Source: Candidatus Bathyarchaeota archaeon (GTDB taxonomy: Archaea; Thermoproteota; Bathyarchaeia; Bathyarchaeales; Bathycorpusculaceae). From it: 64,000 nucleotides of DNA. Numbering within the stretch: position 1 is the first letter of the stretch; each line of letters begins with the position of its first letter. Location of the stretch: positions 1 through 64,000 of the forward strand of contig CAWAKC010000010.1 of assembly GCA_963782525.1 (NCBI GenBank). Reading direction: 5' to 3'. Shown in pieces: positions 11,856 to 21,372 of the stretch. A program made the position numbers and the translations under genes. Under the pieces are notes generated by a model. It did not search any database and had not been told where the DNA came from. It saw nothing but the letters and a program-made list of their open reading frames with translations.

Positions 11856-12590
11856 TTATTTTTCTAGTTGCGATTTTAGCAGGTTTATAGCTGACCATGC
11901 TGCAAGTGCGCTTGTGTGGGGGTTGTCTGGGTGGGGGTCGTTTGCGAATTGCAGGTTCATTTCGCCGTAGCGCCATTTGACGTGGATTTGGTGGGTGTTG
12001 CGTACGACTTTTGGGTCGGATACTACTTGCACTTTGACTTTGGCTGGTTTAACGGTTAAGGCTAATGTTGCAGCTACGTTCATTTCCCTGGGGAACTGTC
12101 TTGCGGCTTCCTCTGCGTAGCCTTCGTAGACGGTTTCTTCTTTGGTGTTGGTTTTTCCGAGTGTTTTTGGGGGTTTGCGGCTGGTCAGTGTGACTTCGTT
12201 GATTCCAGCTAAGGCGGCGGGGGAGAGTGCGTCGAGTCCTCCGATGGCGCCTGAGGGAAAATGCAGTTTAGGGGTGTTTGTGTTTAGATCTAGGAGTGCG
12301 CCTGTACTCATGATGATGAAGTCGATGTTTGCTGCTAAAATTTGGTTGTAGTATTCTCGTACGGCTTGCTGTGATGCTGCCTCAACAATTATTGACGGTT
12401 TGGACGCAAGTAGCTCCTCTACGTTTGGCATGATTTTTACTGGGAATTTTATTTGGTTTTTGAGTTTCTCTGCTTTTGAGGTGTCCAAATCGAAAATTAC
12501 CAGTTCATCACAGACCACCAGTTTGCGTTCGATGGCTTCTGCCAGAACGGTGCCAATGGCGCCGCAGCCAATTAACCCGACGCGTTTCAT
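11856..12590 (-). CDS. nadX: L-aspartate dehydrogenase
   Basis: GCGAIG Rossmann motif, SGAIGGLD, RKPP, NVAA, NPHTSALAA. Confidence 0.85.
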   Translation of the reverse strand: MKRVGLIGCGAIGTVLAEAIERKLVVCDELVIFDLDTSKAEKLKNQIKFPVKIMPNVEELLASKPSIIVEAASQQAVREYYNQILAANIDFIIMSTGALLDLNTNTPKLHFPSGAIGGLDALSPAALAGINEVTLTSRKPPKTLGKTNTKEETVYEGYAEEAARQFPREMNVAATLALTVKPAKVKVQVVSDPKVVRNTHQIHVKWRYGEMNLQFANDPHPDNPHTSALAAWSAINLLKSQLEK

Positions 12591-15100
12591 TTTTTAGTTA
12601 CCGCCCCGAAGACAGCGATGGGAATTACTCCTGGAAACTGTGGTACTTCTTGTCCTTGTCCTGTTTGGGGAATAACTTTGAAGTCTCCTACAACTTTGAG
12701 GGTTCCTGCGATGTCGTTTTTGCTTGTGTTGATTAGGTCGGCGTTTGCTTGGTTTGTGGTGTAGACTTCAAGGGACAGGATGGGAATGTTAAGCGGCAGC
12801 TTTTGGGCGGCTTTCTTTCTGCGCACATCCTCAATCAGAGCCATCACCTTGTCGCCTTCCTCTTCTGCGGCCTTGTCGACAAGCGCGCTGTCCATTTTTG
12901 GCCAAGGTGTGATTTGCAAGCTCTTAAAGCCCTTATCCTTAGTGTACATGTTTTGATAAATTTCTTCAGTCAAATGCGGTGTAATCGGAGCTAACAACTG
13001 CAAAATCTTGTAGAAGACATTGTAGAGGGTTTGTTGAGCAGCTTGCCTTCGCGCTGAATTTTCCGGTTCTACGCGGTAAAGTCGATCCTTAACTGATTCA
13101 ATATAGTAGTCGCAGAATACGTGCCATGTGAAGTTGCGGATGTCTTCGACTGCGATGTTGAATTGGCATTTTTCGAAGGCTTCAGTTACCTTAGTGACTA
13201 GTTTCTCGGTTTTGCTTGTGATCCATTTATCGAGGGGTTGCAAGTCAACCATATCATCTTGCTCTTGGGGTTTGTAGTCGGCTAATAGGTTGCTTGCGAA
13301 GCCTGCGACGTTCCAGAGTTTAACGAGGAAGCGCCTGCCGTATTCAACGTCTTGGGCACGGAAAGGTATGTCTGAGCCTGTAGCTCCTCCGCCAGCAGCC
13401 CACTGCCGAGTCGCATCAGCGCCACTCTTGTTGAGGACTTCAGGTGCCGCAGCGTAGTTTTTGAGGGATTTGCTCATTTTTCTTCCGTCAGCGCCAAGCA
13501 CCATGCCGTTTATGAGGACGCTGTTGAAGGGTCGCTGATCAAATAGTGCTAGGTGGCGTACCATGAGATAGTATGCCCATGTTCGGATGATGTCTGTGCC
13601 TGAAGGGTGCATGCTTGCGGGAAACAGGTGTTTCCAATCGGCGCGGTCAGGCCAGCCAGCGTGGACGGCACAGGTGATTGAGGAGTCCATCCATGTGTCA
13701 AGCACATCGGTTTCGCCCGTGAATTCGTTGCCGCCGCATTTTGGGCATTTGTCGATTCGTGGTTTCTCCATCCTTGGGTCGATGGGTACCCAGCTTTCCT
13801 CTGCAACGATAACTTCTCCGCATGTTTTGCAGTACCACACTGGGATGGGGGTAGCAAATAGTCTTTGGCGGCTGACAACCCAATCCCACTCTAGAGCGCG
13901 TGTCCAATCGATTAGGCGATTTTTCATGTAGTCAGGGTACCAGGGGATTTCGCTAGCGTTCTTCTCGACCGCTTCGGAGAGAGGCATTGTTTTCATAAAC
14001 CATTGCTTTACTTCTAAGATTTCAACTTGGGCTTTGCATCGGTCGCAGACGCCGACTTCATGCTGAATCTTCTCGGTCTTTTCGAGTAATCCAGCGGCGG
14101 TTAAGTCAGCAACGATTGCTGCACGTGCTTGGTTAACATACAAGCCTGCGTATTTGCAGCCTGCTTCACTGATTTTGCCGCTTTCCGTTAGGAGCCTGAT
14201 AACTGGGAGTTTATGTTTTATGACGGTTTTTACGTCTTCTTTGTCGCCGTAAGTACAAATCTGGACAACGCCCGTGCCGAAGCATGGGTCCACTGATTCT
14301 TCGGCGATGATTGTGACTTCACGGTTCATGAGAGGCACAGCGATTTTTCTGCCAATATACTTGCTGTACCGTTCATCTTTTGGGTTAACTTCCACGGCAA
14401 CGCAAGCCGGAATGAATTCGGGTCTTGACGTTGCGATTAATAGAAATTCGCTGCTGCCTTCCAGCTTGAAACGTATGTAATGCAGGGTGCCTTCCTTTTT
14501 TATGTGGTCGACTTCAGCGTCGGCGATGGCGGTTTCGTCACGCGGGCACCAGTTCACTGGATGCGTACCTTGGTACATGTAACCTTTTTTGTGGAGCAAC
14601 ACGAAACTCAATTGTGTGCGGCGCCAATAGTCTGGATCCATCGTCTTGTATTCGGTGGTCCAGTCTATGCTTGCACCCATCTTGAGGATGCCTTCCTTCA
14701 TTATGGCGATGTATTTCTCGACGAGTTCGATGCACCAGGCGCGGAACTGGTCTGGTGGGACATCGCGTTTGCGGATGTTTTTGGCTTTTTCAACTTGGAT
14801 TTCTATGCCTAAGCCATGGCAGTCCCAGCCCTGCGGGAACAGCACGTTGAAGCCTTGCATGCGTTTGAAGCGCGCAACCATGTCAAAATATGTCCAGTTC
14901 AAGACGTTGCCCATGTGGAGTTCACCCGAAGGGTAAGGCGGTGGAGTATCAATACTGAATGGAACCCGTTGCTTGTCATTCCAGTCGTAGTGGTAGATGC
15001 CCATTTCTTCCCATTTCTGCTGCCACTTGCGTTCTATTTCCGTGAAATTGTATTCTTTAGGCATTGGTTGCATGGTTAGTTGACTTCCGATCTTTTTCAT
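12587..15100 (-). CDS. valS: Valine--tRNA ligase
   Basis: IDTPPPYPSGELHMGN, GWDCHG, DVLDTWMDS, KMSKS; true start probably 15073. Confidence 0.97.
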   Translation of the reverse strand: MKKIGSQLTMQPMPKEYNFTEIERKWQQKWEEMGIYHYDWNDKQRVPFSIDTPPPYPSGELHMGNVLNWTYFDMVARFKRMQGFNVLFPQGWDCHGLGIEIQVEKAKNIRKRDVPPDQFRAWCIELVEKYIAIMKEGILKMGASIDWTTEYKTMDPDYWRRTQLSFVLLHKKGYMYQGTHPVNWCPRDETAIADAEVDHIKKEGTLHYIRFKLEGSSEFLLIATSRPEFIPACVAVEVNPKDERYSKYIGRKIAVPLMNREVTIIAEESVDPCFGTGVVQICTYGDKEDVKTVIKHKLPVIRLLTESGKISEAGCKYAGLYVNQARAAIVADLTAAGLLEKTEKIQHEVGVCDRCKAQVEILEVKQWFMKTMPLSEAVEKNASEIPWYPDYMKNRLIDWTRALEWDWVVSRQRLFATPIPVWYCKTCGEVIVAEESWVPIDPRMEKPRIDKCPKCGGNEFTGETDVLDTWMDSSITCAVHAGWPDRADWKHLFPASMHPSGTDIIRTWAYYLMVRHLALFDQRPFNSVLINGMVLGADGRKMSKSLKNYAAAPEVLNKSGADATRQWAAGGGATGSDIPFRAQDVEYGRRFLVKLWNVAGFASNLLADYKPQEQDDMVDLQPLDKWITSKTEKLVTKVTEAFEKCQFNIAVEDIRNFTWHVFCDYYIESVKDRLYRVEPENSARRQAAQQTLYNVFYKILQLLAPITPHLTEEIYQNMYTKDKGFKSLQITPWPKMDSALVDKAAEEEGDKVMALIEDVRRKKAAQKLPLNIPILSLEVYTTNQANADLINTSKNDIAGTLKVVGDFKVIPQTGQGQEVPQFPGVIPIAVFGAVTKK

Positions 15101-15259
15101 CTGGTTAAAGACTAATAACTGTTTAAGTCTTACGCATTAGCCTACCTTAAAGCACTTTATCTGCTTTTGAAATTTTCTTAATCGAGAAACAACGCGAGTT
15201 CGTCTTTTGCAAGTTTTGGGATCTGCAAAACCTAAATATGGCAATTGGCATATTTGATT

Positions 15260-15358
15260 TAGTTCTTGGGGAGCTGGGAAAAGTACCTGGCTGAGAGGAT
15301 GGCTATTGTGCTGTCGACCCTTAGGAACCTGAACCAGGTAATACTGGCGGAGGGAAAA
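15260..15358 (+). ncRNA. TPP riboswitch
   Basis: GGGGA; P3 GCTGGG/CCTGGC; TGAGAG; P3a GATGGC/GCTGTC; GACCCTT; GAACCTGAA; P5 CCAG-GTAATA-CTGG; CGGAGGGAA. Lies upstream of a ThiE-containing operon. Confidence 0.93.
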
Positions 15359-15361
15359 CAA

Positions 15362-15904
15362 TTGAACCTAAATATAACTAGCCAAAAAACTGAAAGTTAT
15401 TCTCCATCAAAAAAAGTAGCGTTAACAGGTGTCATGGCGGCATTAATTGCCGTAACAACAATTATTGCTATACCGTTGCCGCCTCCGCTTTCAACCATAA
15501 ATTTGGCACCCATAATCATATTTGCAGTCAGTATCCTTATGGGTCCAACTGTAGGAGTAACGTCAACAGCTATCGGGTGTGCCATCGGATACTTAGCGGG
15601 AACAAGCATAGGAACAATAATTGTTCCTCCAGGATTTGTTTACATTTACTTGTTTGGTCTAGTTGTTGCCAGGTCACCTATGGCTTTAGCCGTTGGCGTT
15701 TTAAGGAAAAAGAGCGAAATCGCAGGCATGGTTCTGGGTGTTGTTATAGAGACGATGATCTTCTTTGCAATTGACTTTGCTTTGTTCGGAATCGGGTTTG
15801 CAGTTTTCGACTTTGGAACATTCGTGGATTTAGTATTTGTTCCTGTAACTTTCGCGGTGCTTTTAACAGTTAGAAGGTTTCTTGATACAAAGTACTTAAC
15901 TTAG
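15362..15904 (+). CDS. ECF transporter S component (probably thiamine or a precursor)
   Basis: KKVALTGVMAALIAV...INLA..I..MGP pattern, about 5-6 TM. TTG start at 15362 follows the riboswitch (the track start at 15266 lies inside it). Confidence 0.8.
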   Translation: MNLNITSQKTESYSPSKKVALTGVMAALIAVTTIIAIPLPPPLSTINLAPIIIFAVSILMGPTVGVTSTAIGCAIGYLAGTSIGTIIVPPGFVYIYLFGLVVARSPMALAVGVLRKKSEIAGMVLGVVIETMIFFAIDFALFGIGFAVFDFGTFVDLVFVPVTFAVLLTVRRFLDTKYLT

Positions 15905-16588
15905 ATGACAAATATGCAGAACGATTCGAGGTATCAACAGAAACAAACCGCAAATGAATACGAATCGTACTATGAGACCAAATACAAAAGGGCAGACCAA
16001 CTTGAGAAGCACCTGTTAATTAAACTGATAGGTCATTTTAAGGACGCAGAAAACCTGCTTGAGGTCGGATGCGGGACAGCGCATTTTACAAGATGGATTG
16101 ATTCCCAGAGTTTGGTGTGCTTCGGCGTTGATACATCCTCACAGATGCTGCATGAGGCAAAGAAAATGTGGACAAACGGGCGTTTGTTGCAAAGTGAAGG
16201 TAGCCGCTTGCCCTTTAAGGATAAATCAATGGATATCGTCATGTACGTAACCAGCTTAGAGTACATGCCGGATATTTCTGCTGCTTTTTTAGAGGCATCC
16301 AGAGTGTCTAAAAAAGGAATAATCTTAGGACTCCTAAACAAGAATAGCCCCAGCACTCTAAGAAAACAAGTTCAAATCCTAACAAAAGGGGAATCATTCT
16401 ACAAAAACGCACATTTTTATTCCATCTCAAACATAAAAAAGACTTTGAACAAAACCCTTCCAGGAAAGTATGTTATCTCCTTTTGGAGCACCACCGTTTT
16501 TCCCCGAGTTTTCGGAGATTTGGAATCTTCGGTTTTTCCATTTGGCGCTTTCATTGGAATCGCGATAGAATTAAGGGATTCAAAATGA
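15905..16588 (+). CDS. Class I SAM-dependent methyltransferase
   Basis: LLEVGCGTA, GVDTS, LPFKDKSMD motifs. Confidence 0.9.
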   Translation: MTNMQNDSRYQQKQTANEYESYYETKYKRADQLEKHLLIKLIGHFKDAENLLEVGCGTAHFTRWIDSQSLVCFGVDTSSQMLHEAKKMWTNGRLLQSEGSRLPFKDKSMDIVMYVTSLEYMPDISAAFLEASRVSKKGIILGLLNKNSPSTLRKQVQILTKGESFYKNAHFYSISNIKKTLNKTLPGKYVISFWSTTVFPRVFGDLESSVFPFGAFIGIAIELRDSK

Positions 16589-17637
16589 GTGAAACCGGCA
16601 AATTCGCAGTAGATCTAATCGAGAAAATGATTTACCCAAAACTGGGTGCGAAAAGAGCAGAAGTGCTGGTTGGTCCAGGTCACGGTCGTGATAACGCTGT
16701 GGTTCGTTTGGGATGCAATCAGGTTTTAGTTACAACTGCGGATCCTTTATCGGTAATTCCCGCTTTGGGGTTTAAGGATTCAGCATATATTTCTGTTCAC
16801 TTGTTAGCGTCAGATTTAGTTACATGTGGTTTTCAACCACAATTTTTTATAGCCAATCTTAATCTGCCGCCGCAAATGAAGAACGAAGAGTTTGAAGAAT
16901 ACTGGAGTTGCATAAACTTTGAGTGCGAAAAAATCGGCGTAGCCATAATTGGGGGCCACACTGGCAGGTATGTTGGGTCAGATTACACGGTTGTGGGCGG
17001 AGGAGTTATGATGGCGGTTGTCCCAGAAAACAAGTACATAGCGAGTAACATGAGTCAACTGGGCGACATGATTATAATGACCAAAGGAGTTGCCATCGCT
17101 ACTACTGCAATCCTTTCAAGAGTGTTTCCTGAAACAATAAAAAAAACTTATGGGGAACCCTTTTTGGAAAAGGCTAAACTGTATCTTCAAAAGTTTAGCG
17201 TCGTCGATGACGCCCTAACAGCTGCTTCTGTAGGTCTGAGAAATAATGGAGTTTCAGCTATGCACGATGTTACAGAAGGCGGGCTCCTCGGCGCCTTATA
17301 CGAGCTTTCTCAAGCATCCAATATTGGTTTAGAAGTTGACCTATCATCGGTTATTGTTCCCGAGGAAGCAAAGAAAATCTGCGAATTGTTCCAAATTTCC
17401 CCTTACGCATCTTTGAGCGAAGGAACCCTATTGTTAACCGTGAAACCTGAGAAAGCTTCAGCTGTTGAGAAAGCGCTTGATTCGAAAGGGATCAAAAATG
17501 CGGTCATCGGTAAAGTTACTGATACTAAAAAGGGTAAATGGGTCAAAACCGAGGGTAAACGTGAATCTTTGAAAAAACCTGAAGCAGACCCTTATTGGGC
17601 GGCATATTGGAAGGCAAATCGAGAAGGTTGGAAATGA
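16585..17637 (+). CDS. AIR synthase-related protein (PurM/HypE/ThiL superfamily)
   Basis: GPGHGRDNAV, TTADP, SDL, IIGGHT, AMHDVTEGGL; start MSETGK overlaps the MTase stop. Confidence 0.85.
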   Translation: MSETGKFAVDLIEKMIYPKLGAKRAEVLVGPGHGRDNAVVRLGCNQVLVTTADPLSVIPALGFKDSAYISVHLLASDLVTCGFQPQFFIANLNLPPQMKNEEFEEYWSCINFECEKIGVAIIGGHTGRYVGSDYTVVGGGVMMAVVPENKYIASNMSQLGDMIIMTKGVAIATTAILSRVFPETIKKTYGEPFLEKAKLYLQKFSVVDDALTAASVGLRNNGVSAMHDVTEGGLLGALYELSQASNIGLEVDLSSVIVPEEAKKICELFQISPYASLSEGTLLLTVKPEKASAVEKALDSKGIKNAVIGKVTDTKKGKWVKTEGKRESLKKPEADPYWAAYWKANREGWK

Positions 17638-18272
17638 CGCGTTTCCGTAAGCTCGGAGGTTTATATCTTGTTGTTTCTCCAATTTTGCCTTTGGAACGGT
17701 TGCTATTTACCACTGAACGAGCGCTTGGCGGCGGCGTTGACATCCTCCAGGTATCCGCAGAAAAAGAAGCTCAGGACATAACTGTTTTAGCCAGTGTCCT
17801 AGCTGGTCTAGCTAAAAAGCACGATATCCCATTTCTTGTGAACAATAGTTTGGATTTAGCTGAGAAAGTTGAGGCTGACGGCGTTCACTTTGACGCTTAT
17901 GATATTTCTCCTAAAGATGCAAGGCAGGTTCTTGGCAAGGATGCAGTCGTTGGTTACACTGTAAACGTTGATTTGGACAAGATTAAATGGGCAGAGCAGG
18001 TAGATGCAGATTACGTTTCGTTTTGCTCAATCTTTCATCAATGTCCCAGTGGTATATGCCCGATTGTCTCCTTAGAAACGCTAAAAAACGCAGCTTCAAA
18101 CGCCAAGATTCCAGTGTTTGCGGCTGGAGGGATAACCCTGGACAATCTTTTTACCGTTCTCGAAGCTGGCGTGGATGGTGTTGTGGTTACATCAGCTATC
18201 CTTAAATCCGAGAACCCTCAAAACGCCGCAAAGGCTTTCAAGCAAATTATTGGTAGATATCGAGAAAAATAG
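17634..18272 (+). CDS. thiE: Thiamine-phosphate synthase-like protein (atypical active site)
   Basis: GLYLV, FLVNN, ADGVH, ADYV, PVFAAGGIT, VDGVVVTSAI. Confidence 0.8.
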   Translation: MTRFRKLGGLYLVVSPILPLERLLFTTERALGGGVDILQVSAEKEAQDITVLASVLAGLAKKHDIPFLVNNSLDLAEKVEADGVHFDAYDISPKDARQVLGKDAVVGYTVNVDLDKIKWAEQVDADYVSFCSIFHQCPSGICPIVSLETLKNAASNAKIPVFAAGGITLDNLFTVLEAGVDGVVVTSAILKSENPQNAAKAFKQIIGRYREK

Positions 18273-18292
18273 TTGAGAGACTTTGTCAGCTT

Positions 18293-19171
18293 TTATTTTT
18301 TAAGTTCCTTTAGGACAAAGTTGACTATTTCTTCGCCGATGTTAACTTTTGCAACTACTTGCAACCCCTTCCATCCTGGCTGGCTATTCACGTCAACGAT
18401 GCGTGGTCCGTCTGGTCCTTCAAGGATGTCTACACCCGCGATTTTGCAGCCCACAGCTTTAGCAGATTTGACAGCCATTTCCTCGAATTCTTTGCTAATT
18501 GTTGCCGGCGCTGGTTTGGCTCCTTGGCTATAGTTGGTTTTCCATCCGGTCGCTACACGGCGCATGGATGCAACGACTTGGTCTCCGATGACGAATGCTC
18601 GTATATCTGAATGCCCGTGGGGAACAAATTCCTGCATGTAGATGACGCCGTGGTGGAATGTGATGGCTTTGAAGACGGTGTCGGCGATGTCGATATCATT
18701 GACGCGTGTGGCGCCTTGTCCCCGTGAGCCGAAGATAGGTTTGACGACGATGTCGCCGCCGAGTTCGTTAAAAGCCTTTAGTGCTTCGTTGACGCTTTCG
18801 GTGGCTAAGGTGCGAGGGACAGGAACACCTACATCTTCGAGAATAGCGAGGATATCGTATTTGTCGACGCAGTGCTCGATTGCTGTAGGTGGGTTCACCA
18901 TGTAGAAGCCTTTACGTTCCAGCTTGTAGAGCATGTCCATTCGGAAAACCAGCTCTTCAAGTGACCCGCGTCCGATTGGTCGGATGATAAGGGCGTCTAA
19001 ATCGTCGAGGATGCTGGTTCCGTTAACTTTAAAGTAAGGCCTATATGCTAAACGGGCAACAAGTCGTGGAAAAGTGAAGCATTCGTATGGGATGCCTCGC
19101 CTTGTGAGTGCTTCTCGGACTTGTGTGGAGCTCCATGCTTCCATGTTCCGCGTCATTATTCCAAATTTCAA
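18293..19171 (-). CDS. RimK-family ATP-grasp ligase (MptN-like glutamate ligase)
   Basis: VVKPIFGSRGQG, YMQEFV, DIRAFVIG, DVNSQPGWKGL. Confidence 0.85.
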   Translation of the reverse strand: MKFGIMTRNMEAWSSTQVREALTRRGIPYECFTFPRLVARLAYRPYFKVNGTSILDDLDALIIRPIGRGSLEELVFRMDMLYKLERKGFYMVNPPTAIEHCVDKYDILAILEDVGVPVPRTLATESVNEALKAFNELGGDIVVKPIFGSRGQGATRVNDIDIADTVFKAITFHHGVIYMQEFVPHGHSDIRAFVIGDQVVASMRRVATGWKTNYSQGAKPAPATISKEFEEMAVKSAKAVGCKIAGVDILEGPDGPRIVDVNSQPGWKGLQVVAKVNIGEEIVNFVLKELKK

Positions 19172-19255: not shown

Positions 19256-21220
19256 TTATTTTATTCTTTCTAAACGCAGAGTGTTCAGAAGCAGCAGCAT
19301 GGTTACTCCATCGTCACCAGAAGCCACAGTAAACCACAGAGGCGTCAACCCCATCAAACCCAAAGCACCCAAAACCAACTTAACAACCAATGAAGCAGCA
19401 ATGTTTTGTCTCGCAATGCTCATTGTTTTATCGCTCAACTTTAGCAGGTAGGGGATTTGGGCAAGCTCATCATTCACCAATACAACATCTGCTGATTCCA
19501 GGGCAACGTCGACCCCACGTGCCCCCATGGCGATTCCTACATCGGAAGCCGCCAATGCAGGAGCATCGTTCACGCCGTCGCCAACCATCGCCACCAACCC
19601 TTCTTTACCCTTCATGTCTTCGATACATTGGAGCTTATCTTCCGGAAACAGTTCTGAATGAACCTCGTCAATGCCCAGCGACATAGCAGTTTCATTTGCG
19701 ATTTCTGATCTATCCCCAGTTAACATTGCAGTCTTCACGCCACTCTGCTTTAGGGCGCGAATAGCTCTTAGTGCGTCTTGTCTAACCTCGTCAACGACAC
19801 AAACCGCCGCCAAACCGGTTTTGCCTACTGAAATGCAGACTGCAGTATGGGTGTCTCCTTCGGTGATTTCAAAGGCTTCGGTGCAGTCGCAACCAAGTTC
19901 ACGCATGAATTCTAAGTTGCCAATGGCTACGTGCTTATCATTCACTAAACCGACGATGCCTTTGCCCGGAATCTCGACGACATCGGTAACTTTTACTTTG
20001 CTCAGGTCAATGTTCCGCTCCATCGCTTTCCGAACAATCGCCTGTGCGATAGGATGATTAGAAAACTGGTCTAAAGCCGCTGCGTAAGTTATCGCTTCAT
20101 CCTCCGCAGTGGATAGGTTGACCCGCCTAACTTCATGTACGGCTTGACGTCCAAGGGTTAATGTTCCTGTCTTATCAAAAACAACTCTTCGGACTTTTGC
20201 AAGCTTTTCAATAAAAATTCCCCCCTTAATTATTACGCCTCGTTTAGCAGCGATTGTTATTGCAATGAAGACCGTTGCTGGGACGGAAATGATGAAGGCA
20301 CTTGGACAAGAAACAACCAACAGGATGAGTGAGCGGTAAAACCACGTTCGAAATGTTCCGCCCACAAGGTACGGCAAGGCTACAGCAGTGAAAACTGCGA
20401 GGGCAATCACGATGGGCACATAGATTCTGGCGAACCGGTTGACCAGTCCCTCTATAGTTGCTTTCCTCTTCTGGGACTCTACCACCAACTGAACAATTCT
20501 GGAAACCAAAGTTTCAGTGGCTTTCTTTGTAACAGTGATCTTGAGCACTCCCGAGGTGTTTAGGGTGCCAGCGAATACGCAGTCATTCACTTTTTTGGGC
20601 ACAGGCACCGATTCCCCCGTAACTAACGCCTGATCTACATGGGAAAAACCATCCACAACGTTCCCGTCTAAAGGGATTCTTTCTCCAGGCTTGACAAGCA
20701 GAACAGTGCCCGTTTCCACTTGGTTAACATCAACACTTTTCTCTTGTCCATCTGCTGCTAAAACACGGGCTTTTTCAGGGATAAACTTGGAAATTTTTTC
20801 AACAGTCCTTTTTGCTCTATCCTGGATATAACCTTCAAGGTACTCCGCTACACAATACAGAAACAGGACAGTGGCTGCTTCGAAACGGTAATCGAGAAAC
20901 AATGCACCTAAACCTGCAACCGCCATCAAGAATTCGACACTGAAACGTCTTTCCAAAACCAGTTCCTTTAAGCCGACGGCGCCGATGTAGATTGCTGCCG
21001 TTAAGATCGCAACATAATACAGCACCATGGATAAAGTTGCAGGCGCATTCAAAATTGGCATCGTGAAGCCCAGCGGTACACCTTTAGCAAACAAGTCAAG
21101 TAAGCCGCTGACAAGTATGGTTACGCCTAACCAAACAGCTAACCCAACCAGCACACGCCTGCTACGTTCCTCTTCCCCCAACGCTTCTGGTTTTCCTGGT
21201 TTTTCTTCACACGTACCCAT
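19256..21220 (-). CDS. Heavy-metal P1B-type ATPase (ZntA/CadA-like)
   Basis: TGES, SCPS in the metal-binding helix, DKTGTLT, HP, GDGVNDAPAL; no N-terminal HMA domain. Confidence 0.9.
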   Translation of the reverse strand: MGTCEEKPGKPEALGEEERSRRVLVGLAVWLGVTILVSGLLDLFAKGVPLGFTMPILNAPATLSMVLYYVAILTAAIYIGAVGLKELVLERRFSVEFLMAVAGLGALFLDYRFEAATVLFLYCVAEYLEGYIQDRAKRTVEKISKFIPEKARVLAADGQEKSVDVNQVETGTVLLVKPGERIPLDGNVVDGFSHVDQALVTGESVPVPKKVNDCVFAGTLNTSGVLKITVTKKATETLVSRIVQLVVESQKRKATIEGLVNRFARIYVPIVIALAVFTAVALPYLVGGTFRTWFYRSLILLVVSCPSAFIISVPATVFIAITIAAKRGVIIKGGIFIEKLAKVRRVVFDKTGTLTLGRQAVHEVRRVNLSTAEDEAITYAAALDQFSNHPIAQAIVRKAMERNIDLSKVKVTDVVEIPGKGIVGLVNDKHVAIGNLEFMRELGCDCTEAFEITEGDTHTAVCISVGKTGLAAVCVVDEVRQDALRAIRALKQSGVKTAMLTGDRSEIANETAMSLGIDEVHSELFPEDKLQCIEDMKGKEGLVAMVGDGVNDAPALAASDVGIAMGARGVDVALESADVVLVNDELAQIPYLLKLSDKTMSIARQNIAASLVVKLVLGALGLMGLTPLWFTVASGDDGVTMLLLLNTLRLERIK

Positions 21221-21372
21221 TTTCTCAACCGAAAATTGCTGAAAAATTCTTGTTACTAAGGTATAAAAAAACATTTAATAAAAACAAATCTGTCGGCACC
21301 CAAAATTTTCCTGTTTCTGAGCAGGATTTGCAAAAAAATAAAAGCAACACGAGCAGAATATCATCGGCACAC

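Follow-up and report, generated by a model that had tools for sequence, protein, structure and literature searches.

The described systems closest to the locus reported here are operons for the salvage of thiamine precursors and systems that couple thiamine uptake to phosphorylation. The former, reportedly described by Rodionov et al. 2002, are controlled by thiamine pyrophosphate (TPP) riboswitches and combine thiM, thiD and thiE with the transporters ThiW, HmpT or CytX, while the latter join uptake by ThiT or PnuT to thiamine pyrophosphokinase (TPK), or use ThiK together with ThiL. Here we analyse a riboswitch-preceded operon in a stretch of 64,000 nucleotides from a Candidatus Bathyarchaeota archaeon (contig CAWAKC010000010.1 of assembly GCA_963782525.1, positions 1 to 64,000; hereafter the window). 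It resembles the precursor salvage operons in its TPP riboswitch, its vitamin-type transporter gene and its gene for a ThiE-fold protein, and like them it would feed ThiL. Unlike them, it carries an S-adenosylmethionine (SAM)-dependent methyltransferase (MTase) and an AIR synthase (AIRS)-fold enzyme in a genome that has neither ThiD nor ThiM, and its ThiE homologue lacks the ligands for the pyrophosphate and Mg2+ of hydroxymethylpyrimidine pyrophosphate (HMP-PP). We propose, with about even confidence, that these genes form a hitherto undescribed kind of thiamine-salvage operon, ending in thiamine monophosphate (TMP), in a Bathyarchaeon unable to make thiamine. None of the open-access papers found, judged by their abstracts, describes this gene set.

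An earlier note on this DNA had read a TPP riboswitch followed by a tightly coupled four-gene operon, and all five elements were indeed found, on one (+) strand. The aptamer (THI element, 15257-15371, identified by a match to the RF00059 covariance model) is followed by genes for an energy-coupling factor (ECF)-type S component (15362-15904), a class I SAM-dependent MTase (15905-16588), an AIRS-fold ATP-utilising enzyme of an unnamed family (PF00586 plus PF02769; 16585-17637) and a ThiE/TenI-fold protein, hereafter ThiE-like (PF02581, TMP-TENI, 134.9 bits; 17634-18272). The TAG stop codon of the S-component gene directly abuts the ATG of the MTase gene, and ATGA overlaps are present at both the MTase/AIRS and the AIRS/ThiE-like junctions. 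The G+C content of the operon is 40.5-43.8%, compared to 47.8-50.9% in the flanks (window positions 15000-18300 and surroundings). The source genome (G000) comprises 2.87 Mb and is 95.8% complete. Judged by NCBIfam cut-offs, none of which was reached, the MTase, the AIRS protein and the ThiE-like protein would each stand outside the recognised families.

The aptamer was detected in a permissive scan of positions 14900-15700, in which the full RF00059 model (positions 1-105) matched with 53.9 bits (E 1.2e-9), 0.4 bits below the Rfam gathering score of 54.3; a default Rfam scan of the window returned two tRNAs only. This match is the sole TPP match in the genome. The conserved 3' segment of the aptamer holds a GGAGG sequence, which lies 10 nt before the probable TTG start codon of the S-component gene. 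In a correction to the earlier note, alignment with orthologues, whose ATG coincides with the TTG at 15362, points to this codon as the most likely start, within the aptamer's 3' end, with the ATG at 15434 as the alternative. Since both TTG 15362 and GGAGG sit in the aptamer 3' end, the aptamer could directly occlude the ribosome site. Folding of the leader (15245-15450) gave z = -0.14 and revealed no clear alternative or distinctive structure. The S component itself matched PF07155 with 39.3 bits (cut-off 26.7); it had no ThiT (PF09515) or ThiW match in Pfam, and its nearest atlas clusters are generic S-component clusters.

Distribution of the gene set and thiamine genes of its carriers

Scanning one genome per species with the AIRS protein yielded at least 593 matching stretches, from which 80 loci were kept for counts, and the neighbouring genes were scored by tblastn with the window proteins at loci fetched around the AIRS relatives. 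The order MTase-AIRS-ThiE was present in 59 of 63 bacterial loci, mostly from Bacteroidota and Balneolales; of the other four, three are cut by contig ends and one, from Eisenbacteria, carries the AIRS gene alone. In archaea the same order was found in 8 of 17 loci, each time with an S component upstream (8/8). Clustering of the flanking open reading frames (ORFs) identified no further conserved neighbour apart from a Trm112-like gene in bacteria. Another five AIRS relatives from archaea, which lack a thiamine context and are of uncertain orthology, are accompanied by ThiL-like genes but by no ThiC.

The riboswitch accompanies this gene set in both domains. RF00059 scored above the gathering score in all 19 bacterial trio loci tested (57.6-73.1 bits), comprising 8 loci tested first and 11 loci that were negative in a simple motif search, and in all 12 archaeal loci tested (56.5-70.9 bits), comprising 7 trio loci, where it holds the syntenic position, and 5 two-gene loci, where it lies upstream of the S component. 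Among trio loci, the motif search had detected a TPP core upstream of the MTase gene in all 8 from archaea and in 40 of the 59 from bacteria. The trio of MTase, AIRS and ThiE-like genes, whose neighbourhood the earlier note had proposed to compare across domains, is thus conserved in two domains behind TPP riboswitches, and the linkage of the MTase, on which its interpretation depended, is physical, as the MTase gene is joined to the AIRS and ThiE-like genes.

A simpler arrangement emerged within Bathyarchaeia. In a sample of 301 genomes (300 plus G000), AIRS orthologues scoring at least 353 bits were present in 30 genomes, whereas the trio-type ThiE-like protein was present in only 4 and was absent from 14 further genomes of the genus to which the window belongs. 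A two-gene form is found in the 26 AIRS carriers that lack the trio: at the eight such loci examined, a TPP riboswitch (62.9-70.9 bits) precedes a gene for ThiT or for an S component 28-34% identical to that of the window, which is followed by the AIRS gene. The two-gene set includes L138-L145, and the order riboswitch-transporter-AIRS also occurs at L028 and L041, whose S components match ThiT (PF09515, 143-158 bits), and at L081, where the transporter belongs to the major facilitator superfamily. The AIRS gene is an independent core that is also found alone with ThiT-type transporters, and the MTase and ThiE-like genes are an add-on pair, seen only together at the loci around AIRS relatives.

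In a quick tree the clades of archaeal two-gene loci, archaeal trio loci and bacterial trio loci branched as a three-way split. The AIRS family was present in 3 of 150 evenly drawn Bacteroidota genomes plus G001, too few for co-occurrence statistics. Because of its patchy distribution, its low G+C content and its spread over two domains, the data suggest that the operon is a mobile, horizontally acquired accessory module.

To place the module in the metabolism of its hosts, thiamine genes were scored in 31 carriers, namely G000 and 30 further genomes (25 Bacteroidota and 5 Bathyarchaeia). ThiC, ThiG and a ThiD-like protein above 150 bits were each found in two carriers only, the same two in all cases (G004 and G011), where the ThiD-like gene lies beside those for ThiC and ThiE. 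ThiM was found in none of the 25 Bacteroidota carriers; archaeal ThiM matches were not counted, being partial matches inside ORFs of 287-578 amino acids, and neither were matches to Thi4, which covered the FAD-binding motif only. TPK was present in 4 of the 31 carriers and in none of 29 further Bathyarchaeia genomes that carry the AIRS gene. TenA was absent from the 5 genomes tested for it, and ThiN was present in 1 of 5 archaeal genomes tested. ThiL, on the other hand, scored above its cut-off in all 31 carriers. The operon gene is the only PF02581 copy in G000, as it is in 18 of 25 Bacteroidota and in 4 of 4 trio Bathyarchaeia. Among five two-gene genomes tested, ThiL exceeded the cut-off in four and ThiD was found in none; G029, in which the AIRS gene stands with ThiT, has neither ThiE nor ThiN. 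The operon would be the only thiamine-regulated enzyme set of its carriers. Since the genes of the normal pathway are absent while ThiL is kept, these organisms need to obtain TMP.

Other TPP riboswitches were seen in the course of these scans. In 22 carrier genomes scanned, the remaining strong ones of the Bacteroidota precede genes for TonB-dependent receptors in all 8 cases examined (L094, L096, L098, L103, L104, L110, L113 and L117); the receptor has a CarboxypepD_reg-like N-terminus and is encoded mostly by a monocistronic gene. The TPP regulon of the Bacteroidota carriers examined showed no inner-membrane transporter. At L126 (286-1876, G014:C6) a sub-threshold TPP match of 50.9 bits lies before a gene for a PnuT-like transporter (PF04973, 160 bits), which is followed by one for a 335-amino-acid protein weakly like flavin-dependent monooxygenases and acyl-CoA dehydrogenases.

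Predicted properties of the operon proteins

The AIRS superfamily includes ThiL, a phosphotransferase acting on TMP. Among NCBIfam models, the AIRS protein of the operon scored 89.9 bits against ThiL (TIGR01379, cut-off 184.15), 84.9 bits against HypE (TIGR02124, cut-off 251.6) and 77.7 bits against SelD, and a canonical ThiL is encoded on another contig of the same genome (G000:C12:67040-67993, 265.8 bits). The view of the earlier note that this protein is not simply ThiL is borne out by these scores. Among solved chains, the closest in sequence is HypE (60.5 bits). The AlphaFold model of the protein (predicted local distance difference test, pLDDT, 94.7) superimposed on HypE with template modelling (TM) scores of 0.79/0.82 and on ThiL (3c9r) with 0.69/0.79. 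HypE, ThiL and SelD are about equally distant from it at roughly 17-22% identity, with ThiL at about 17-20%. By these comparisons the AIRS protein appears to be neither ThiL nor HypE: it shares superfamily and fold with ThiL, and like ThiL it is proposed to carry out ATP-dependent chemistry on a thiamine compound, but a separate canonical ThiL accompanies it; it has its nearest solved structure in HypE, but its context is thiamine rather than hydrogenase and its C-terminus reads EGWK.

The family is well populated, with more than 120 relatives at 63% identity or more, many of which are mislabelled as HypE in public annotations. Asp 36, 53, 77 and 228 and a GGHTG motif are invariant. The terminal residues are mostly GWK or GWQ, and the protein does not have the C-terminal Cys that we take to be the acceptor in HypE. 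The GWK tail was considered as a covalent carrier site and rejected, as the last residue varies. A search for fused, longer AIRS forms found none, which is a weak negative.

We propose that the AIRS protein is most likely a thiamine or thiazole-alcohol (hydroxyethylthiazole) kinase. This reading rests on the gap in the pathway and on the gene pairing: because an importer and ThiL are present and no enzyme for the step from thiamine to TMP was recognised, a kinase would be the simplest role. The arrangement of riboswitch, ThiT and AIRS gene resembles the described systems in which uptake is followed by metabolic trapping; it differs from them in that the proposed kinase has the AIRS fold, not that of TPK or APH, and TPK is absent from 27 of 31 and 29 of 29 carriers.

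A second AIRS-fold paralogue, 30% identical to that of the operon, is encoded in the same genome (G000:C1:187748-188749; L002:1330-2337). Its gene immediately follows that of a PF07155 S component (120 bits; L002:735-1316) and precedes a PTO1314-like radical SAM gene (L002:2434-3471), and no riboswitch was found at this locus. In the 301-genome sample the AIRS profile matched in 255 genomes, of which 30 have the operon type, and the remaining matches, at about 260-294 bits, are like the paralogue. The idea that this near-universal paralogue substitutes for riboflavin kinase was unsupported, as the archaeal CTP-dependent riboflavin kinase was found in 5 of 5 genomes.

The MTase matched PF08241 with 63.1 bits. 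It contains the invariant SAM motif E-x-G-C-G-T, and its model has a Rossmann fold, to which the nearest structures are small uncharacterised MTases (2gs9, 1vlm) and the Haloferax Trm112-Hvo_0019 complex (6f5z). In bacterial loci a fourth gene, situated directly after the ThiE-like gene, encodes a Trm112p-like protein (PF03966, 33.6 bits); of the 56 trio loci whose sequence extends far enough downstream, 49 carry it. Mean pairwise identity across 50 bacterial operons was 75.7% for the MTase, 54.5% for the AIRS protein, 51.0% for the Trm112-like protein and 42.7% for the ThiE-like protein. When a Bacteroidota MTase and its Trm112-like neighbour were modelled as a complex, the score was 0.84 as compared to 0.00 for the best control; 58 of 80 solved complexes and 2 of 110 mismatched pairs reached that mark. 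The runs shared at least 83% of contacts, and the pLDDT of the partner was at least 83. As similar complexes have already been solved, this score may reflect likeness to them rather than prove binding of the two proteins. The archaeal operons lack the Trm112-like gene, and Trm112 is encoded elsewhere in 5 of 5 Bathyarchaeial genomes checked. From these models and gene neighbourhoods, the MTase is probably Trm112-dependent.

Known partners of Trm112 methylate tRNA, rRNA or release factors. The Trm112-like gene of the bacterial operons and the presence of 6f5z among the nearest folds liken the operon MTase to the Trm112-MTase holoenzymes (Trm9, Trm11, Mtq2 and Bud23), from which it differs by its place in a vitamin regulon. 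Since thiamine has no heteroatom-bound methyl group, the methylation most plausibly activates or marks an intermediate.

The ThiE-like protein scored 134.8 bits against ThiE (TIGR00693, cut-off 145.1; 88.4 bits for a Bacteroidota orthologue) and 77.5 bits against TenI (NF005819, cut-off 251), and thus remains below both cut-offs. In a comparison with the PDB, the TenI entry 1yad reached 52.8 bits and ThiE 83.7 bits. The protein was aligned to Bacillus subtilis ThiE (numbering of PDB 1g4t) and to the canonical operon ThiE that a carrier genome encodes at L127. We take the pyrophosphate and Mg2+ ligands of the B. subtilis enzyme to be Arg59, Lys61, Asp93, Asp112, Thr156, Thr158 and Lys159. The ThiE-like protein lacks Arg59, Asp93, Thr156, Thr158 and Lys159, and the position of Asp112 is not conserved in the family; Arg59 is replaced by Ser or Ala (Trp in Bacteroidota), Asp93 by Asn, and a FHQCPSG/FPS stretch stands in place of Thr156, Thr158 and Lys159. 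In the same alignment, the L127 protein retained all ligands lost from the ThiE-like protein.

The remainder of the active site is kept. As a member of the TIM-barrel ThiE/TenI family, the ThiE-like protein retains the pyrimidine ligand Gln57, Ser130 (as Thr) and the thiazole-phosphate ligands Gly188 and Ser209, and its own Q39, G165/G166 and S187, at pyrimidine or thiazole-phosphate positions, are invariant or nearly so. Q39, H85, D87, T109, C131, C142 and G165/G166 are among the residues invariant in 17 family members, and of these H85, D87, C131 and C142 are new relative to canonical ThiE. These His, Asp and Cys residues map to the B and C loops, the ones that close over the bridge and the Mg-pyrophosphate in ThiE. 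We infer that the protein would still bind a TMP-like skeleton while dispensing with Mg and with pyrophosphate as the leaving group; it might instead use a metal site or thiol chemistry. Fusions gave a weak negative, as the only long forms found were canonical ThiD, ThiF and other ThiE fusions.

Five Bacteroidota carrier genomes (G003, G007, G009, G015 and G022; L129-L133) encode a second PF02581 paralogue despite having no ThiC, ThiD or ThiG. Its motifs (WvQyR, ..nH) are unlike those of canonical ThiE and of the operon type alike.

Beyond the operon, a gene for a RimK-family ATP-grasp ligase (18293-19171, (-) strand) converges on it. The ligase has its best match in MptN (tetrahydromethanopterin:glutamate ligase; 260.4 bits, below the cut-off of 350), and it is the same operon neighbour in the closest relatives, L009, L010 and L016 (91-98% identity). 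Judged by translation alone, the upstream ORF at 12587-15100 (-) encodes an 837-amino-acid class I aminoacyl-tRNA-synthetase-like protein, and the downstream ORF at 19256-21274 (-) a 672-amino-acid protein resembling a heavy-metal P-type ATPase.

Proposed pathway and alternative explanations

In the pathway that we propose, low TPP would leave the ribosome-binding site and the TTG start free of the riboswitch structure, and the S component, judged by its family and context, would import thiamine or a close relative. The AIRS enzyme would then carry out an ATP-dependent phosphorylation of the thiazole moiety at its hydroxyethyl group, which would turn thiamine into TMP or a thiazole alcohol into its phosphate; this step, suggested by the missing reaction and the gene pairing, would trap the compound and feed canonical ThiL for TPP formation. 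More speculatively, the MTase with a Trm112-type partner and the ThiE homologue might convert a second thiamine-related compound to TMP without HMP-PP. Methylation might provide a leaving group or activate a position that carries a modification, and the ThiE homologue, with its pyrimidine and thiazole-phosphate pockets kept and a His/Asp/Cys/Cys cluster replacing the Mg-pyrophosphate site, would take part in this conversion. Taken to its full extent, this would mean pyrophosphate-independent rebuilding of TMP from an environmental breakdown or modification product of thiamine, by Trm112-activated methylation followed by a ThiE homologue with a metal- or Cys-based site, together with a new class of ECF S-coupled vitamin-trapping kinases formed by the AIRS proteins; in this joint form the proposal is tentative and we regard it as rather unlikely. 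The earlier note had suggested uptake and SAM- and ATP-dependent conversion of a thiamine-related compound, which fits the evidence, or synthesis of a modified thiamine, for which no support was obtained.

Several observations weigh against the salvage reading. The AIRS protein is as near to HypE as to ThiL, so that amide-type oxygen chemistry is equally possible, and no thiamine-binding residues could be mapped on its model. The near-universal Bathyarchaeial AIRS paralogue sits in a different context, and the AIRS relatives that lack both a riboswitch and a thiamine context (L017, L018, L021, L035 and L057) may be other subfamilies. The thiamine skeleton leaves no room for a methyl group, so that the MTase step has no obvious role in simple salvage. 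The loss of pyrophosphate ligands was judged from alignments and from the active site of B. subtilis ThiE, not from a structure of the protein itself. Finally, the gap between thiamine and TMP might be filled by uptake of TMP, which ThiT-type transporters presumably also bind, or by an unrecognised APH-type thiamine kinase, for which no ThiK search was made.

Retention of the canonical chemistry with replaced kinases would be one alternative, which we judge improbable. Here the ThiE-like protein would condense HMP-PP with thiazole phosphate like any TMP synthase, the AIRS enzyme would replace ThiD and/or ThiM, and the MTase would be accessory. In line with this, G000 and 18 of 25 Bacteroidota carriers encode no PF02581 protein besides the ThiE-like one, and ThiL is present in all 31 carriers, which makes TMP the expected intermediate; moreover, a ThiL-type reaction from phosphate to diphosphate would suit the conversion of hydroxymethylpyrimidine phosphate to HMP-PP. 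However, the pyrophosphate and Mg2+ ligands of ThiE are missing family-wide although the canonical operon ThiE keeps them in the same alignment, and a single enzyme would need to catalyse three distinct phosphorylations. In G029 the AIRS gene is found with ThiT while both ThiE and ThiN are missing. The MTase, product of the most conserved gene, would be left without a role.

Repair of damaged thiamine, such as 2-oxo or 2-thioxo thiazole and 4'-oxo pyrimidine forms, is likewise doubtful in our estimation. With ATP, the AIRS enzyme would activate an oxygen of the amide or thiocarbamate type in the manner of HypE, PurL and PurM, the MTase would activate a thione or another heteroatom, and the invariant Cys pair of the ThiE-like protein would finish removing the group with the TMP skeleton bound. 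This agrees with HypE being the nearest solved relative by both sequence and fold, and with the preservation of both halves of the TMP-binding site in the ThiE-like protein alongside new invariants in the B and C loops; a single imported substrate would also fit the single transporter gene. On the other side, no evidence was found that damaged forms are abundant enough for so widespread a regulon, an AIRS enzyme alone with ThiT could not complete the repair, and no gene for reductant recycling is linked to the operon.

We give very little credence to the possibility that the operon makes a methylated thiamine derivative, an antivitamin or a TPP-sparing bypass instead of TPP: methylation does occur in bacimethrin biosynthesis and the MTase is the most conserved component, but putative TPP-riboswitch control in auxotrophs without another route to TMP points to supply, not consumption, and the AIRS gene pairs with thiamine importers. 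Similarly, the AIRS protein is most improbably a second, divergent ThiL, which its best NCBIfam match would suggest, since it stays below the ThiL cut-off, every carrier genome tested has a canonical ThiL with which the conserved thiamine-import context would be redundant, and its identity to ThiL, HypE and SelD alike is about 20%.

Exchange of vitamin B1 shapes microbial communities, and auxotrophy is now predicted from the canonical gene set. Dozens of Bacteroidota species from soil, sediment and freshwater, and a subset of Bathyarchaeia, have only ThiL plus this module and would be mis-scored by such predictions. If the salvage reading is true, the AIRS protein would be a candidate for the thiamine-to-TMP kinase long missing in archaea, the ThiE homologue would be a ThiE-fold enzyme unable to use HMP-PP, and the MTase would be the first methyltransferase tied to thiamine acquisition. 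With small, soluble operon proteins and carriers available in culture, these proposals are directly testable.

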